In this document: positions 3,461-9,573 of the stretch, piece after piece | Position numbering within the stretch: position 1 is the stretch's first letter | Layout: each line of letters opens with the position of its first letter | Assembly (NCBI GenBank): GCA_963807635.1 | Contig: CAWEDJ010000103.1 | Location: 1-12,982 of the forward strand | From: an uncultured cyanobacterium | GTDB taxonomy: Bacteria; Cyanobacteriota; Cyanobacteriia; Cyanobacteriales; Microcystaceae | DNA: 12,982 bases | Reading direction: 5' to 3' | Notes under the pieces: generated by a model | Databases searched by the model: none | What the model was told of the DNA's origin: nothing | Seen by the model: the letters and a program-made list of their open reading frames with translations, nothing else | Made by a program: the position numbers and the translations under genes

Positions 3461-4353
3461 TTATTTTCCTGATTGACTATTATTTGGACGGGGGAAACGT
3501 GCCATCAATTCGCGAACCTGTTCGGCATGGTAGGAACTGCGGGTCAGAGGAGAAGAAACCACTTGCAAAAAGCCAATGGATTCCCCAAAAAGTCGCCAGG
3601 CTTCAAATTGTTCTGGGGTGACAAATTCTTGCACTCCTAAATGTTTTTGGGTCGGTTGGAGATACTGCCCCAAGGTCAAAATATCACAATCGACTGCCCG
3701 TAAATCTTCCATAACTTGGCGAATTTCTGCATCTGTTTCCCCTAATCCCACCATTAAGCCCGATTTGGTGTAGGTACTAGGCGCGATCGCACGGGTACGT
3801 TTCAATAATTCCAGCGATCGCCCATAATCTCCCTGGGGACGAGTCCGACGATAGAGACGCGGGATGGTTTCGGTATTGTGATTCAAAACTTCAGGACTGG
3901 CACTGAGAATAATGGCTAGAGCGTCCCAGTTTCCGCATAGGTCTGGAATGAGAACTTCAATGGTCGTTTTAGGGGAAATTTTCCGAGTTTCTTCAATGCA
4001 ACGCACAAATTGAGACGCACCACCATCGGGCAGATCATCGCGATTGACAGAAGTAATGACGACATGATTGAGATTTAAGCGTTTCACGGCTTCGGCTAAT
4101 CTGATCGGTTCTGTTGCATCCAAAGGTTGGGGCTTTTTTTCAAAATCGATATCACAGTAGGGACAGGCACGGGTGCAAGCTGGCCCATGATCAAAAAGGT
4201 TGCGGTTCCTGCCTGAAAGCATTCGCCAATATTGGGGCAAGATGCCTCTTCACAGACGGTATTGAGGGATAAATCGCGCAAAATCTCTTTGACACTGCCC
4301 ACTCGTTGCCATTGGGGTGCTTTTACTCTCAGCCATTCGGGTTTAACGGTCAC
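3461..4353 (-). CDS. lipA: Lipoyl synthase, split by a single-base frameshift at ~4182-4186
   Basis: ORF 4096-4353 gives KPEWLRVK and [12 protein letters not shown]...[11 protein letters not shown] 3461-4240 continues [12 protein letters not shown] (radical SAM CxxxCxxC), [22 protein letters not shown] and RSSYHA. Adding one base at ATGGGC^CAG restores MGPACT. GTG start with a GAGGAG RBS 6 nt upstream. Confidence 0.95.
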
Positions 4354-4506
4354 GGTTTACTCCTCGTCGATTTGGTGTTGTGTAGCTGATATAGTGCGGT
4401 GAATACCAAAAATTTTAAGATAGATTTATTATTATATAATTCATGCAGTTGATTAATGGGCGTTTTTTCTTATTATTACTGTCTTTCTAGATTAATGGTC
4501 TTTTCT

Positions 4507-5157
4507 ATGTCTCAAAAAAGAGAGCTATTTACCATCGGGCATTCCAATTTAAGTGAGGAAGATTTTATTCGTCATTTAAAACAGCATAACATCACGGCGT
4601 TGGCTGATGTGAGATCCCATCCCTATAGTCGTTATTTACCTCATTTTTGTCGGGATTATCTGAAGTTTTTGTTAAGGCAAAATAATATTCAATATGTTTT
4701 TTTAGGGGAGCAACTGGGAGCGAGACCAAGTGATCAGGATTGTTATGTTGAGGGAAAGGCAGTTTATGAAAAAATAGCGAATACGGTTGCTTTTCAGCAG
4801 GGTTTGGAGAGGGTCGTGATCGGTTCAGAAAAACATAGAATTGCGTTGATGTGTGCGGAGAAAGATCCGATTACTTGTCATCGAGCGATTTTGATTTGTC
4901 AATATTTACGAGATTGTGATCTGGATATTCATCATATTTTATTGAATGGAGATTTAGAGTCTCATTCTCAGCTTGAGGATCGTTTATTGGAATCTTTGGA
5001 TTTATTGCCTAAGCCTCAAGTTCAATTAAGTATTTTTGATGAGGTTAATAATATGATTAATGGAGTAGTCAATATTTCTAGACAAGATTTATTAGCTAAT
5101 GCTTATATAAAAACCGGTGACAAAAATGCTTATCAATTACCTAACATCAAAAGTTAG
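4507..5157 (+). CDS. DUF488 family protein
   Basis: LFTIGHS, LADVRS.PYSR..PHF, LGARP and ALMCAEKDP..CHR motifs. The likely start is ATG 4507 (MSQKRELFTIGHS) rather than 4456. Confidence 0.9.
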   Translation: MSQKRELFTIGHSNLSEEDFIRHLKQHNITALADVRSHPYSRYLPHFCRDYLKFLLRQNNIQYVFLGEQLGARPSDQDCYVEGKAVYEKIANTVAFQQGLERVVIGSEKHRIALMCAEKDPITCHRAILICQYLRDCDLDIHHILLNGDLESHSQLEDRLLESLDLLPKPQVQLSIFDEVNNMINGVVNISRQDLLANAYIKTGDKNAYQLPNIKS

Positions 5158-5160
5158 TTT

Positions 5161-5185
5161 TTATTTAATATATGGTATTAAATAA
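5161..5185. promoter_or_regulatory. Perfect AT-only inverted repeat (10-bp arms, 5-nt loop), function unknown
   Basis: TTATTTAATA-TATGG-TATTAAATAA, starting 4 nt after the DUF488 stop. Confidence 0.4.
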
Positions 5186-5328
5186 TCAGAAAAAATTGTA
5201 TATTTTCAAATATTGACTCAAAGAAACATTTAATATTTCTGTTGCTTTATGATTTAATTTAATTTATTGCAAAATGAACAGACTTTTTATAAATTTACAA
5301 GTACTTAAAAATAAAGTCAAATCAAATT

Positions 5329-8067
5329 ATGAATAAAATTATTACTCCTGAAATCATCGTTTCTTACGCCCAATGTCCTCGTAAAGCATATCTATTGTTG
5401 TTTTCTAATGAGGTTGGCAGACATAATCAATATATCACTATTATTGAAAAACAAAAATCTATTAATCAAAATAAATACATAAATAATCTGAGTAAACAGT
5501 ATCCTGCTTCAATATCTTTTAATAACAAGAACTTGGGGGAAAGTAGCGATTTTTTAATTAATACAGAAATCCAAATTGAAAATAATAAAATAGCTTGTTG
5601 TATTCTGACAAAAACACTCTCTCCTTCATTGTTAGGTGAATACAGTTATGAACCAACAATTTTTATTGGAACACACCATATTAGCAACGAACAAAAGTTA
5701 GAATTAATCTTTATTGGATATATTTTAGGGGAAATTCAAGGTCAACTACCTGCAAGGGGTTGGATTATTGATGGTGGACTAAAATCCCATCAAGTCAGAC
5801 TAGAAAATGGTTATAAAATTTTAAATCCTATACTTGAAGACCTACAAAAACTAACTCAATCTACTCCACCTAAAATTCCTCCCCTCATCTTAAATAAACA
5901 CTGTACTTACTGCGAATTTCAGAATTTATGCCAAGTGCAGGCTGAACAAGATGATAATCTGAGTCTATTGGATCACGCTACTTCAAAAGTTATTCGACAC
6001 TATGAGAAGAAAGGGATTTTTACGATTAAACAACTTTCCTACTTGTACAAACCTCGACGACGCAATAAACGAAAAAAGAAGGCCCCAATACAATTGCATA
6101 AATTAGAGTTACAGGCTTTAGCGATTAGAACAAATAAGATTTATATTCATGAATTACCTAAATTGAACAGAAAACCTATCGAACTATTTTTTGATATTGA
6201 GGGAATTCCAGATCAGAATTATGAGTATCTTCTCGGATTGCTTGTGTGTCATGAAAACAAATCATGCAATCACTATTCTTTTTGGGCAGATACTTGTGAA
6301 GATGAATATGTAATATGGCAACAGTTTATAGAAGTAGTTAATCAATATCCAGATGCACCTATTTATCATTATGGAGATTATGAATTGCGGGCGATCAACA
6401 AATTAGCGAAATCTTATGAATCAAATTTAAGTGTGGATATTGAAAGTATTAAAAAACGCCTTGTTAATATTAATACTTACATTTATGGTCGAATATATTT
6501 TCCTGTCTATTCAAATAGATTGAAAACTATTGGTCGTTTTATTGGAGCTTCTTGGACATCTCCAGAAGCATCTGGGCTACAAAGTCTTGTCTGGAGATAC
6601 CATTGGGACAGTACAAAAGATGAAAGCTACAAAAATTCACTACTGATTTATAATAGCGAAGATTGTCAATCCTTGAAATTATTAACGGATAAACTTTCCA
6701 CAATTAAGGATTCTGCTGACACCTTATCCGAGATTGATTTTGTAGATCAGTCTAAACGATCGACAACAGAAATAGGCACTGAACTACACGATCAGCTTGA
6801 CACGATTCTCAAAATTGCTCATGGTGACTATGATAGAAAAAAAATTAGTTTTCAGGATGGCACAAATAGCAATAGAGAAAAGTTAAAACGCGGAGGTCAA
6901 AAAGGACACCAAGGTTACACAAAATTACTTCCAAAAGCACACAAAGTCATTTATTTTGCCACAAGATTGGAATGTCCGAAACATGAACATGGTGGCCAAC
7001 CTCTAATCGAGTCAACCCGAACTACAGAATCTACAATTGTCGATCTCATTTTTGTCAAGAATGCCATCAAAAAAGTAATTATAAAATATGTGAGAAAAAA
7101 GGGTTTCTGTTCAGAATGCAATAAATACTATAATCCCTCGGAAATGATGCTAGAATTAGGCTATTTTTCGTATGGACATGGTATTCAAGCATGGGTTGTG
7201 TATCACCGATTGTTTCTACGCTTACCTTACAGAGTTATTGCAGAAACATTAGAAGATCAATTTGGAGAAAAAATTGGTAAGAGTTCGCTCACAAATTTTT
7301 TAAAATATTTTAGTAACTATTATGTTGAAACGGAAAAATTTCTTATCGATAAAATGCTAAGAAGTCCTTTTATTCATGCAGATGAGACGGTTGTTAATAT
7401 TCAAGGTTTTGATCAATATGTTTGGGTATTTACAGATGGAATTCATGTTGTTTTTAAGCTCACTCCAACGAGAGAAGCCGCTATCATCCATGAATTTTTA
7501 GGTAATTATGCTGGAACCCTAATTTCAGATTTTTATGCGGGATATGACTCCGTTCAATGTAAGCAACAAAAGTGTTGGGTACATTTAATTCGAGACATGA
7601 ACGATGATTTATGGAAGGCTCCCTTTGATATAGAGTATGAAAGCTTTATATTAGAAGTACGCAATCTGATTGTGCCTATTTTACAAAGTGTCGAGGAGCA
7701 TGGATTAAAAACTAAAAAACTTAGTAAATTTAATTCTAGTGTTGAAAAATTTTATGAAGATACAATTAACAAAAATTATAAATCTGAGTTAACACTCAAA
7801 TATCAAAAGCGATTATTGCGCTACAGAGAAAGTTTGTTTACTTTTCTTAACGAAGATAATATTCCCTGGAATAATAATATGGGAGAACGTGCGATTAGAC
7901 ACTTAGCTGTTCAAAGGAAAATTTCAGGTACTTTCTTTGAATCTATGATGCCTCACTACTTGTTGCTTCTTGGAATTATGCAAACCTGCCGATTTCAAGA
8001 TAAATCCTTCCTTCAATTTCTCTTGTCGAAAGAAAAAAATATTGATAAATTCAAAAAGAAAAAATAA
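5329..8067 (+). CDS. Fusion: TM0106-family RecB/Cas4-like domain + RNase_H_2 (DEDD-type) exonuclease + IS66-family zinc finger and DDE transposase
   Basis: N-terminus: YAQCPRKAYL (C16) and HCTYCEFQNLC (C192/C195/C201). HhH-like segment KKGIFTIKQL. Exonuclease motifs FFDIEG (D289/E291), YHYGDYE and YNSEDC (D445). IS66 motifs RGGQKGHQG, CPKH...CSEC, IHADET (D685), LISDFYAGY (D734), QKCWVHLIR and NNMGERAIR...RKISG (E853). Confidence 0.88.
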   Translation: MNKIITPEIIVSYAQCPRKAYLLLFSNEVGRHNQYITIIEKQKSINQNKYINNLSKQYPASISFNNKNLGESSDFLINTEIQIENNKIACCILTKTLSPSLLGEYSYEPTIFIGTHHISNEQKLELIFIGYILGEIQGQLPARGWIIDGGLKSHQVRLENGYKILNPILEDLQKLTQSTPPKIPPLILNKHCTYCEFQNLCQVQAEQDDNLSLLDHATSKVIRHYEKKGIFTIKQLSYLYKPRRRNKRKKKAPIQLHKLELQALAIRTNKIYIHELPKLNRKPIELFFDIEGIPDQNYEYLLGLLVCHENKSCNHYSFWADTCEDEYVIWQQFIEVVNQYPDAPIYHYGDYELRAINKLAKSYESNLSVDIESIKKRLVNINTYIYGRIYFPVYSNRLKTIGRFIGASWTSPEASGLQSLVWRYHWDSTKDESYKNSLLIYNSEDCQSLKLLTDKLSTIKDSADTLSEIDFVDQSKRSTTEIGTELHDQLDTILKIAHGDYDRKKISFQDGTNSNREKLKRGGQKGHQGYTKLLPKAHKVIYFATRLECPKHEHGGQPLIESTRTTESTIVDLIFVKNAIKKVIIKYVRKKGFCSECNKYYNPSEMMLELGYFSYGHGIQAWVVYHRLFLRLPYRVIAETLEDQFGEKIGKSSLTNFLKYFSNYYVETEKFLIDKMLRSPFIHADETVVNIQGFDQYVWVFTDGIHVVFKLTPTREAAIIHEFLGNYAGTLISDFYAGYDSVQCKQQKCWVHLIRDMNDDLWKAPFDIEYESFILEVRNLIVPILQSVEEHGLKTKKLSKFNSSVEKFYEDTINKNYKSELTLKYQKRLLRYRESLFTFLNEDNIPWNNNMGERAIRHLAVQRKISGTFFESMMPHYLLLLGIMQTCRFQDKSFLQFLLSKEKNIDKFKKKK

Positions 8068-8100
8068 TAATCAAACAAATATTCTCATATTTTCCCAACG

Positions 8101-8141
8101 TTGATCGCGTTTAGTTGGTTTAAAGGGAAATAGGCGATCGC
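8101..8141 (+). repeat. HIP1-bounded direct repeat, copy 1
   Basis: ttGATCGC-GTTTAGTTGGTTTAAAGGGAAATAG-GCGATCGC (25-nt core). Confidence 0.9.
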
Positions 8142-8148
8142 AAAAAAG

Positions 8149-8157
8149 TGTTAAAAT
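8149..8157 (+). promoter_or_regulatory. Putative extended -10 promoter for the DUF433/DUF5615 operon
   Basis: TG-T-TAAAAT, 33 nt upstream of ATG 8191 and just after repeat copy 1. Confidence 0.45.
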
Positions 8158-8181
8158 AATTAGAGTGTCCTTTCAAAATAG

Positions 8182-8412
<231 letters not shown>

Positions 8413-8423
8413 AATTGTAAACC

Positions 8424-8783
8424 ATGAAATTTAAAATTGATGAAAATTTACCCGTAGAATTTGCTGAACTTCTACAAAATGCTGGTTATGATGCCATGAC
8501 CGTTCATCAACAGAATTTAAAAGGTGAAAAAGATCCCATTCTTCTGGATATTTGTCAGCAAGAAAATAGAATTTTAGTAACCCTCGATTTAGATTTTAGT
8601 AATATTAGAAATTATCCTCCAGAACAATTTTTAGGAATCATAGTATTACGAGCTAATCGTCAAGATAAACTATACCTAATGTCAATCTTTCAACAAGCGA
8701 TTCCTTTATTAAATCAAGAACCAATTATTCATCGCTTATGGATTGTAGAAGAAAAACGGATCAGAATACGAGGAGAGGACTAA
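8424..8783 (+). CDS. DUF5615 family PIN-like toxin (VapC45-like)
   Basis: MKFKIDENLP, D..IL...Q.ENRILVTLDLDF and GIIVLR motifs; starts 11 nt after the DUF433 stop. Confidence 0.92.
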   Translation: MKFKIDENLPVEFAELLQNAGYDAMTVHQQNLKGEKDPILLDICQQENRILVTLDLDFSNIRNYPPEQFLGIIVLRANRQDKLYLMSIFQQAIPLLNQEPIIHRLWIVEEKRIRIRGED

Positions 8784-8832
8784 AAACTGTCTCAAAACAA
8801 GCTAGAAAATAATTACCTTTTTAGAAATTGTC

Positions 8833-8888
8833 GCGATCGCGTTTAGTTGTTAAAGGTAAATAGGAGATCGCGCTTCTACTGACAGAAT
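8833..8888 (+). repeat. HIP1-bounded direct repeat, copy 2, with 3' extension
   Basis: GCGATCGC-GTTTAGTTGTTAAAGGTAAATAG-GaGATCGC (8833-8871), then GCTTCTACTGACAGAAT, which resembles the tail of copy 3. Confidence 0.9.
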
Positions 8889-8906
8889 CGTAGAAACAAT
8901 TATAAT
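8879..8906 (+). promoter_or_regulatory. Putative sigma70-type promoter for parDE
   Basis: CTGACA (8879-8884), 16-nt spacer, TATAAT (8901-8906), 26 nt upstream of ATG 8933. Confidence 0.5.
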
Positions 8907-8932
8907 CAAAAAAAGTTCAACCCTGATTTACT

Positions 8933-9190
8933 ATGAATTTACTACTCAAACCTGAACATCAAAAACTGATTGAAGCCCAACTCAACACAGGACGCTACGC
9001 AAATCCCGACGAAATTATTGCTGAAGCCTTAGAGCTACTAAACAAGCGTGACCAGTATCAAGAATGGAGCGAGGAAATTGGTCGAAAAATTGACATCGCC
9101 GCCCAACAACTAGATCGAGGCGAAGGAATTGATGGTGAGAGCGCGATCGCCCTGCTAAGAAAAAAACTTCAAAAAAATAGTGAAATTTAA
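8933..9190 (+). CDS. parD: ParD-family (CC2985-like ribbon-helix-helix) antitoxin
   Basis: L.PE..KLIEAQL.TGRY.N.DEII.EAL.LL and I..A..QLDRGEGIDGE patterns; directly upstream of a ParE-like gene. Confidence 0.85.
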   Translation: MNLLLKPEHQKLIEAQLNTGRYANPDEIIAEALELLNKRDQYQEWSEEIGRKIDIAAQQLDRGEGIDGESAIALLRKKLQKNSEI

Positions 9191-9196
9191 GTTTCC

Positions 9197-9492
9197 ATGA
9201 ATTCATATATCATTGCCCCAGAAGCCATGAGTGATCTTGAACAAATCATAGATTATTTAGCAATGGATAATGTTAATAAAGGAGAAAATTTTCTAAATGA
9301 ATTCAACAAAAAATGTTGCTATTTAACCCAATTTCCGATGATGGGTCGTAGTTATCGTGAAATTCGTTCCTATCTACGCGGCTTACCGATGAAAAAACAT
9401 ATTTTTTTTATCGTGTCTTAAATGGTGGACTTGAGATTATGCGTGTCGTTCCCGCTAATCGGGATTTAGAAGCTATTTTTTCAGACTATTAA
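9197..9492 (+). CDS. parE: RelE/ParE-family toxin, frameshifted in a T8 tract at 9402-9409
   Basis: APEAMSDLEQI.DY and L.QFP.MGR.Y.EI...LRGLP. One extra T gives HIFFYRVLNGGLEIMRVVPANRDLEAIFSDY* (stop 9490-9492), a canonical ParE C-terminus (FYR...EI.RV....RDL). Confidence 0.87.
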
Positions 9493-9510
9493 TAAAATTT
9501 GAACACAATC

Positions 9511-9573
9511 AATAGGCGATCGCGTTTAGTTGGTTTAAAGTTAAATAGGTGATCGCATTGCTATTAACAGAAT
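9511..9573 (+). repeat. HIP1-bounded direct repeat, copy 3, with 3' extension
   Basis: AATAG-GCGATCGC-GTTTAGTTGGTTTAAAGTTAAATAG-GtGATCGC (9516-9556), then ATTGCTATTAACAGAAT. Confidence 0.9.

Follow-up and report, generated by a model that had tools for sequence, protein, structure and literature searches.

The protein described here, encoded by an uncultured cyanobacterium of the Microcystaceae, joins in one chain a Cas4-like iron-sulphur (Fe-S) domain, a DEDDy-type 3′-5′ exonuclease and an IS66-type transposase core, and this three-domain fusion is biologically real, old and selected. Its gene lies at 5329..8067 on the (+) strand of the window, by which we mean the entire 12,982-nucleotide (nt) contig that was analysed (CAWEDJ010000103.1 of assembly GCA_963807635.1, hereafter G000; 4.03 Mb, 93.7% complete); translation, profile matches and an AlphaFold2 model define it as a fusion of a TM0106-type module with an IS66-type transposase. 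As the initial annotation of this DNA had it, the gene is a single uninterrupted open reading frame (ORF) of 912 amino acids (aa), with no internal stop. The fusion is a new architectural variant among IS66 transposases, widespread and apparently unstudied. Our leading, still tentative, reading is that it is an ancient, horizontally transferred and self-contained accessory gene, which may couple 3′-end trimming to DDE chemistry and probably has its own non-canonical means of spread.

The N-terminal half, for which a TM0106-family architecture had been proposed at about residues 1-455, is matched by the NCBIfam model TIGR03491 (TM0106 family) over aa 8-454 (E 1.8e-75); the score is 254.7 bits, where the cut-off is 97.45, and the alignment takes in positions 4-460 of the 462 in the model. 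Similarly, the IS66 TnpC-like module placed at about 520-900 is recovered both by NF033517 (IS66 transposase; aa 524-899, E 1.6e-54, 185.5 bits against a cut-off of 180) and by Pfam DDE_Tnp_IS66 (aa 615-869, E 6e-34, 118.2 bits against 23.1). Pfam RNase_H_2 covers aa 286-456 (E 1.6e-26, 93.6 bits against 22). The sequences of solved structures, searched with the protein, gave no match at E <0.1.

The AlphaFold2 model of the 912-aa protein, for which 60 homologues served as input (mean predicted local distance difference test (pLDDT) 85.1; predicted template modelling score (pTM) 0.55), is resolved by structure comparison (Foldseek, VIA-align) into three folds, at aa 1-208, 282-472 and 535-892. 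The first is closest to Cas4 as it stands in a Cas4/Cas1 fusion (7mi4_A; Z 17.6, root-mean-square deviation (rmsd) 2.9, 184 residues aligned), and the second to the 3′-5′ exonuclease of a family-B polymerase (5mdn_A; Z 15.8, rmsd 3.7, 169 aligned), with the exonuclease domain of E. coli Pol II (3k5l_A) scoring Z 15.2. The best match of the third is the IS256-family ISCth4 transposase (6xg8_A; Z 14.3, rmsd 5.1, 306 aligned); Foldseek also matched the C-terminal part to 6xgx_A (ISCth4) at E 2.7e-08 (VIA Z 14.3-14.9). The sole long disordered stretch of the model (pLDDT <50) is a linker at aa 501-531.

The Cas4-like domain (aa 1-208; 5329..5952, + strand, as are all parts of the gene given below) was delimited by structural alignment to 7mi4_A, residue columns and segment identities. 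All residue counts refer to an alignment (MAFFT) of 118 full-length homologues, in which C16, C192, C195 and C201, the split 1+3 Fe-S cysteine pattern pointed out in the initial annotation, are invariant (118/118). The site equivalent to that of PD-(D/E)xK nucleases is degenerate: position 91 is D in 51/118, G in 46 and A in 12, and the lysine slot at position 110 is T in 96/118, with K outside its six commonest residues and E108 invariant; the window protein reads C91 and E108-P-T110 (ExT, not ExK), columns 91, 108 and 110 being mapped onto the Cas4 motif by strand order in the model and by the usual spacing of the motif. Stand-alone TM0106 proteins of related cyanobacteria likewise lack a D...ExK motif. 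Pfam Cas_Cas4 matches the sequence weakly (E 0.011, 16.3 bits against a cut-off of 22.7) and TIGR00372 (Cas4) scores 14 bits against a cut-off of 65. We read this domain as an Fe-S-stabilised DNA-binding domain that is probably not a working nuclease, and, as its nuclease site is degenerate, trimming is most likely confined to the DEDDy exonuclease.

The next segment (aa 209-283; 5953..6177; alignment and model) is helix-rich and HhH-like, carrying LSLL...KKGIFTxKQLS, and then becomes a basic disordered stretch, KPRRRNKRKKK (pLDDT <50 at aa 246-249). The HhH-like character suggested previously stands in so far as aa 211-237 are strongly conserved, but no Pfam HhH model matches at E <=1. The exonuclease domain (aa 284-472; 6178..6744) was assigned from Pfam RNase_H_2, the family-B polymerase fold and its residues: D289, E291 and D445, on which the RNase_H_2 assignment had originally been made, are invariant in 118/118, as are D295, H347 and Y441, and position 352 is E in 113 and D in 5. 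The DxE (D289-x-E291), acidic (H347...E352) and Yx3D (Y441-x3-D445) residues, which we take to be the Exo I DxE, the Exo II acidic residue (E352) and the Exo III Yx3D, stand on an RNase-H-like fold, as expected of a DEDD exonuclease.

The junction (aa 473-531; 6745..6921; model, alignment, junction search) consists of a conserved helix (aa 481-498) and then a disordered basic linker with KRGGQKGHQG; D470, F471, K476, H487 and Y501 are conserved in at least 95% of the aligned homologues. A GGQxGH motif, listed among the original IS66 features, is indeed present here (GGQKGH, aa 522-527) but is semi-conserved in the family and falls within the disordered linker. Beyond it is a zinc knuckle with long beta-hairpins (aa 532-612; 6922..7164; model, alignment, segment comparisons), which agrees with the zinc finger predicted beside the IS66 core: C549, C594 and C597 are invariant and position 552 is H in 75/118 and C in 41/118 (H552 here). 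DNA binding is its presumed role. The last part, the IS66-type DDE catalytic core and its helical insertion (aa 613-912; 7165..8064; Pfam DDE_Tnp_IS66, 6xg8_A fold, triad) contains a C749/H752 motif, and the putative triad D685, D734 and E853 proves to be complete and invariant (118/118).

A whole-length protein search returned 1245 proteins at E <=0.001 among 8000 scored candidates. Both Pfam domains are found in 120/120 of the best matches listed, and 118 of them are 880-960 aa long at 52-76% identity; this count is a lower bound, being drawn from the best 120 of 1245 matches, so that where the initial annotation had allowed for there being no full-length homologues, at least 118 share the junction. 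As it also foresaw, the fusions are filed under either single label, 'IS66 family transposase' or 'TM0106 family RecB-like putative nuclease'. Sources named in the protein search are Snowella, Xenococcus, Xenococcaceae, Anaerolineae, Chloroflexi, Poribacteria, Thiorhodococcus, Methanoperedens and Methanoregula, and genome contigs with the gene come from Pleurocapsa, Desulfococcus, Peribacteria, Bacteroidales and Ferruginibacter. The family thus spans cyanobacteria, Chloroflexi, Bacteroidota, Deltaproteobacteria, Candidate Phyla Radiation (CPR) bacteria and methanogenic archaea. Among metagenome contigs, 567/659 pattern-matched stretches encode a relative.

The conservation of the junction, proposed as a check at the outset, was searched for with aa 440-620 against 1.84 billion cluster representatives, giving 181 matches at E <=0.001 and 112 at E <=1e-10. 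Thirteen of these representatives are full length (878-920 aa), and in all of them, even at identities as low as 24%, the position of the junction is unchanged; the fusion is therefore old. For the C-terminal half, every one of the closest relatives is a fragment or a member of the fusion family (at least 50% identity); with ordinary IS66 transposases of its own and of related genomes the fusion shares 26-28% identity. G000 holds one copy. In a phylum-wide sample the gene is found, single-copy each time, in 4/401 cyanobacterial genomes, and of 40 close relatives only G004 (74% identity), G010 (one internal TGA) and G014 (two copies) have it in full length; G003 and G006 have pieces of the fusion that touch a contig end or lie within a few nt of one. 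No internal stop interrupts the G004 and G014 copies that the genome search aligned along the entire query, and 43/51 complete fusion genes in the collected loci are free of stop or N.

Selection was estimated pairwise, for 8 pairs and by segment, as the ratio of nonsynonymous to synonymous substitution rates (dN/dS). This is 0.16-0.28 overall, 0.11-0.26 in the exonuclease, 0.09-0.19 in the DDE core, 0.14-0.40 in the junction and 0.12-0.44 in aa 1-106. As every segment lies within 0.09-0.44, neither half gives a sign of the relaxed selection that the initial annotation had named as a possible outcome, and both halves and the junction are, by these sequence comparisons, under purifying selection. 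Given the homologues, the selection across the junction and the intact copies, there is a vanishingly small chance that the gene is the product of misassembly, is in decay or arose by a single in-frame insertion of IS66 into a TM0106 gene; such an origin has no support beyond being conceivable a priori, and the two probable single-base frameshifts in the window are both in other genes.

The gene is also a mosaic. Residues 1-106 of the window protein are 50-60% identical to one sub-lineage, whereas another sub-lineage matches the remainder at 88-93% identity; no part of the protein varies more than aa 1-106, which is exchanged between lineages by recombination. Within the same sequence pairs, synonymous distances jump from segment to segment. 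The two paralogues of the complete genome G014 (C1:1929077-1931788 and 3159870-3162575; L004 and L119) share 40% protein identity, and yet 88% DNA identity over the first ~700 nt of the gene and ~95 nt upstream of it, a pattern that suggests gene conversion, or else a swap of modules, at the 5′ end. By these patterns, recombination exchanges two parts of the gene, its 5′ module and the zinc-knuckle segment.

Architecture, conservation, selection, distribution, mosaicism and the missing inverted repeats (see below) are what we observed; the enzymatic steps and the link to mobility in our leading reading we infer. In this proposal, in which the members of the family are catalytically competent DDE recombinases of IS66 type that carry their own DNA-end module, the Cas4-like 4Fe-4S domain, with its degenerate nuclease site, would hold a DNA end together with the HhH-like segment; the polymerase-B-type DEDDy exonuclease would trim the 3′ strand; and the DDE site would use the resulting 3′-OH for cleavage and strand transfer. 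The gene could then spread as a non-canonical transposable unit of ~3 kb, without terminal inverted repeats or by one-ended movement. In favour of this reading we count the architecture and folds, the breadth of the family, the invariant exonuclease and DDE residues and the dN/dS values, together with several signs of mobility: the gene is present in few genomes (4/401) and few of the 40 close relatives, its chromosomal sites in G000 and G004 differ, an abundant relative in the metagenome run X9 is without it at this site, 5′ modules are mosaic, and one group of loci (the soil clade, below) has a sharply bounded 3′ end. Moreover, what copies in different contexts have in common at the DNA level is confined to the ORF with ~8-124 nt upstream and 0-130 nt downstream.

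In its C-terminal part the protein resembles IS66 TnpC, including that of single-ORF ISBst12-type members, in the DDE_Tnp_IS66 core, the D/D/E triad with a C..H motif after the second Asp, and the zinc knuckle and basic G-rich motif N-terminal of the core; it differs in that ~520 extra N-terminal residues (Cas4-like and exonuclease) replace the usual N-terminal region. Canonical IS66 members carry tnpA and tnpB, and single-ORF subgroups do without them; IS66 insertion sequences make an 8 bp target-site duplication. In contrast to IS66 elements, the fusion has 1-2 copies per genome, no inverted repeats that we could find, and no tnpA/tnpB in 84/87 loci. To TM0106/COG2251 (TIGR03491) it is alike in the two-domain N-terminal architecture, the Cys pattern and a score far above cut-off, but it adds a complete transposase core and is rare, whereas stand-alone TM0106 proteins (~480-550 aa) are nearly universal. 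ISCth4 (IS256 family; 6xg8/6xgx) shares the RNase-H-like core, the alpha-helical insertion and an N-terminal DNA-binding part, but it belongs to another IS family, is 11-16% identical and lacks nuclease modules. In Tn7, the PD-(D/E)xK-fold protein TnsA, an active endonuclease that cuts the 5′ strands, acts with the DDE transposase TnsB on transposon ends; in the fusion, by contrast, the PD-(D/E)xK site is apparently inactive, the added nuclease is of the 3′-5′ exonuclease type, and there are no Tn7-like ends or partners. Finally, Cas4-Cas1 and DnaQ-Cas2 fusions likewise join a DNA-end-trimming module covalently to a strand-transfer enzyme, though there the integrase is Cas1 and here a DDE transposase, and the Cas4-like Lys is here replaced (T in 96/118) and the Asp variable. 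The parallel with Cas4-Cas1 and Cas2-DnaQ drawn in the initial annotation therefore holds at the level of the fold (7mi4_A, Z 17.6) but not for the Cas4-like site, which is degenerate, nor for the window, which has no cas genes.

Several observations weigh against spread as a transposable unit. In the ten loci examined for terminal inverted repeats, the window included, the best flank match did not exceed the maximum of 30 shuffles (10/10, with one tie), and there is no inverted repeat around the ORF in the window; a target-site duplication is not definable as the ends are undefined. Copy number is low, with one copy in G000 and in each of the 4 positive genomes and two, divergent, in G014. 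Where sites could be compared, the gene lies inside a replaced island and no clean insertion is seen: between G014 and G425, 3.8 kb (an XhlA-like gene, the fusion and a Phd antitoxin gene) stand against 1.1 kb of other DNA, and between G004 and G000:C86 a ParA-like gene occupies the place of the fusion. In addition, 7/87 loci have a classical 560-aa IS66 transposase head-to-head upstream of the fusion, with tnpA/tnpB beyond it in 3, so that in these the fusion gene could be cargo of a classical IS66 element; and the 3′ end shared by the loci that we call the soil clade has no inverted partner in 13 loci checked.

This 3′ end is a common sequence of ~105 nt in 10/87 loci, starting ~105-120 nt past the stop in most and stopping sharply at ...CCGGAAGGACAC, beyond which the flanks are unrelated. 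A classical IS66 element ends in a sequence homologous to it, and the region in front of the classical IS66 gene is a direct, not an inverted, repeat of it. L049 has the 3′ end with no classical IS66 gene in its 983 nt of upstream flank, so that the end belongs to the fusion unit; L054 and L062 have it too, with upstream flanks too short to judge for the classical gene. Of 44 loci with enough flank, only L060 and L078, both of the soil clade, and L089 have clear direct repeats between their two flanks, and in L089 the repeat resembles coding sequence of paralogues. tnpA/tnpB are absent from 84/87 loci, the window among them, and the 3 positive loci are all of one soil clade, beside a separate IS66 transposase. 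No tRNA was found in 11 soil-clade loci. The soil-clade ends fit descent from an IS66-type element, and perhaps one-ended movement, without proving either. In this soil-metagenome clade the whole arrangement, seen in L078 (1-5454) and also in L079, L060, L048, L081, L084 and L082, runs tnpA-tnpB, the classical IS66 transposase on the opposite strand, the fusion and the ~105-nt end; the order persists although DNA identity is 72-78% and the right flanks are unrelated, so that it may be a composite mobile unit.

The window copy is single and solitary, in a variable island rich in toxin-antitoxin (TA) genes and with no recognisable insertion sequence. The segment 5138..8102, made up of the fusion gene, 191 nt of AT-rich DNA upstream and 35 nt downstream, is lacking at this site in two genomes of the same genus, G003 and G004: the alignments with G004:C74 and G003:C261 end at 5137/5133 and resume at 8103, both genomes have other DNA between the break points, and the G004 fusion copy is at a different chromosomal site. 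A contig of the lake-metagenome run X9 (depth ~48) links window position 5107 to 8850 via 1207 other letters, and fusion-like contigs in that run have a depth of 5-7 and different flanks; an abundant relative in run X9 is thus without the fusion at this site. The 171-nt region upstream of the ORF, with the gene start (window 5001-5500), has 23% G+C against ~40-45% in the flanking housekeeping genes, and the stretch from 5.1 to 9.5 kb is G+C-poor throughout (0.23-0.37), which fits a foreign origin.

Downstream of this segment is a 40-nt HIP1-bounded direct repeat array (8103..9559, +; repeats at 8103-8141, 8833-8875 and 9511-9559) with two TA cassettes between the repeats, DUF433/DUF5615 (8191-8783) and ParD-like/ParE (8933-9421); it is given as context, a link to the fusion gene not being shown. 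The repeat ends are HIP1 (GCGATCGC) palindromes, and with just 3 copies in total in the 4.03-Mb G000 a generic dispersed repeat was ruled out. In G003:C223 there are three repeat-bounded cassettes, ordered otherwise than in the window, and in G004:C28 the repeat stands three times in tandem and is accompanied by a PIN cassette; in neither genome is the fusion gene beside the array. Repeat-bounded TA cassettes also lie near the fusion in L044, L073 and L027. Direct-repeat pairs occur near the gene in 12/87 loci, as against 21/150 random 5.2-kb windows of G000, a control that demanded a gap of at least 100 nt and so differs slightly from the criterion used for the loci; in view of this lack of enrichment we rejected repeat-bounded cassettes as a hallmark of the fusion gene.

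No conserved partner gene was found in 10 loci, where the neighbours differ in all ten and include no tnpA/tnpB; the ORFs directly upstream in G004 and on a Calothrix plasmid are unrelated. Many neighbours, in a description without statistical control, are toxin-antitoxin, restriction-modification, Bro-N, ParA and small nuclease genes. PD-(D/E)xK and XhlA-like genes lie near the fusion in G004 and G014, Phd/ParE genes in G014 and L044, a HEPN/nucleotidyltransferase gene and a DUF4143 ATPase gene in L019, and an Eco57I-like methylase gene in L020. A 278-aa Bro-N gene is directly downstream of the fusion in three Bacteroidales loci (L021 6169-7002, L026 1567-2400, L027 4422-5255). Among PADLOC-DB 2.0.0 models the fusion matches none beyond weak Cas4 models (best E 4.1e-05), and there are no cas genes among the window ORFs and no CRISPR array in the window. 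Relatives are absent from 2.9 million viral contigs, searched with patterns, and from 50,697 phage records, hence no phage link; among plasmids, 2/72,556 records match, and one Calothrix plasmid carries the fusion. Stand-alone TM0106 homologues, of ~480-550 aa, are carried by 38/40 relatives, and G014 and G010 have both the fusion and an intact stand-alone gene; the N-terminal half of the fusion is 25-34% identical to the stand-alone proteins. G000 has no stand-alone gene, a tblastn search with two same-genus proteins matching the fusion only, and that of G004 (C164:28431-29600), the one other genome of the genus in which the fusion is full length, has an internal TAG, though with only two genomes this could be chance.

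These surroundings bear on what the protein does. One possibility, somewhat unlikely in our estimate but deserving of serious attention, is that an IS66-derived recombinase-nuclease has been exapted for a conflict function, acting for instance on the ends of invading or competing DNA, and travels as passive cargo of islands and does not move itself. The low copy number, the lack of transposon ends and the retention of all catalytic residues across deep divergence would suit such a role, as would the patchy, horizontally transferred and island-borne distribution that is usual for defence genes, the DUF488 gene (a PDC-M45B candidate, see below) and two TA cassettes in the window, the HEPN, methylase, Bro-N and Phd/ParE genes at other loci, and comparable sites that show replacement of islands rather than insertion. 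However, the matches in PADLOC are limited to weak Cas4 models, no partner is conserved in the 10 loci (witness the unrelated upstream ORFs of G004 and the Calothrix plasmid), viral contigs and phage records have no relatives, and the description of neighbourhoods has no statistical control. That the fusion is instead a repair-type nuclease with a transposase-derived DNA-binding or processing module, standing in for stand-alone TM0106 proteins, we consider distinctly improbable: its appeal is that almost all relatives keep a stand-alone gene whereas G000 has none and that of G004 is interrupted. Yet this concerns two genomes only, one of them (G000) 93.7% complete; G014 and G010 carry, besides a fusion, an intact stand-alone gene, the N-terminal half is distant from the stand-alone proteins, and an invariant DDE triad and a presence in ~1% of genomes would be left unexplained.

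A capture-and-integrate enzyme, comparable to Cas4-Cas1 or DnaQ-Cas2 and perhaps building or shuffling the adjacent repeat-bounded cassette array, seems to us doubtful in the extreme without being negligible. In its favour, aa 1-208 are in structure closest to Cas4 as fused to Cas1, an intact trimming exonuclease stands beside an intact strand-transfer site (the residues of both are invariant), and the gene heads an array of two TA cassettes whose 40-nt repeat occurs just 3 times in G000, whose order and content differ in G003 and G004 and which has counterparts near the gene in L044, L073 and L027; but direct-repeat pairs are no more frequent at the fusion loci than in random windows, G003 and G004 keep the array with no fusion gene adjacent, the Cas4-like nuclease site is degenerate, and the window has neither cas genes nor a CRISPR array. 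A broader variant, unlikely though a little less far-fetched, would make the protein an end-independent integration machine in which the Cas4-like domain, catalytically dead, highly variable and exchanged by recombination, serves as a clamp that gives specificity, the DEDDy exonuclease trims arbitrary or motif-defined 3′ ends to length and the DDE core integrates them. If this were true, it would be a non-CRISPR analogue of Cas4/DnaQ-assisted Cas1 integration, serving cassette capture or defence. DNA capture, choice of target and domesticated defence had each been raised in the initial annotation, and nothing that we found shows any of them, PADLOC giving weak Cas4 matches only and the cassettes not being enriched. 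An accessory gene that may spread by its own non-canonical means stays our leading reading, and a tentative one beside the alternatives of defence and DNA capture.

Other features of the window are noted here. The DUF488 gene (4456-5157, +) matches the PADLOC candidate-defence model PDC-M45B with 227 bits. Its similarity to G003 and G004 breaks off at 5133-5137, the final ~20 nt of the gene being different; G003 carries here instead another DUF488 gene together with a DuOB-domain gene. The 11-nt sequence ATTACCTAACA of the left junction is inverted relative to the G004 junction; it was considered as a recombination site and rejected, having one exact copy and, with <=2 mismatches, 9 matches against 4.3 expected. 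The ParE-like toxin ORF (9197-9421, +) encodes 74 aa as against 98 aa in G003 (L039:5173-5466). A contig of run X4 reads one more T behind position 9401, and a frameshift has probably truncated the toxin in the window genome. Similarly, the lipoyl synthase gene (3461-4353, -) is split into two overlapping ORFs by a base missing after 4183: the G004 homologue is intact at 298 aa and the X4 and X9 contigs carry an extra C, which suggests an assembly error or a real frameshift. An Rfam scan of the window and 8 loci found no family, bar one chance-level match; a promoter scan gave 19 promoter-like sites against 15.7 expected, and a terminator scan 0, neither of them being informative.

In the sources that we consulted there is one apparent earlier record of the fusion: Table 1 of PMC3469429 lists without comment four genes as 'transposase IS66, pfam03050 + COG2251' in Solibacter usitatus (Ellin6076). 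The passage of PMC3985635 on COG2251/PF13482 describes a presumed 3′-5′ exonuclease family, often with a DUF83 PD-(D/E)xK-like domain. Beyond the PMC3469429 table row, we found no functional or comparative study of the fusion in the open full-text literature (subscription journals and ISfinder/TnPedia lie outside this scope), and the statement of the initial annotation that no functional characterisation is known is borne out to that extent.

We suggest that the interest of this family lies in the combination that it has kept. DDE transposases normally rely on host enzymes or on separate subunits for the processing of DNA ends, and the chemistry of IS66 transposition is itself, to our knowledge, poorly understood. 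Here, in a deep family spanning several phyla, an exonuclease and an Fe-S end-binding domain are covalently attached to an intact IS66-type core, and ordinary transposon ends are lacking. For annotation, this means that either of the current database labels conceals half of the protein. The attachment of a nuclease, or the missing ends, could indicate an as yet unknown transposition pathway or a transposase that has been recruited to another DNA transaction, and the family offers a compact, single-protein system in which IS66-type chemistry can be tested.

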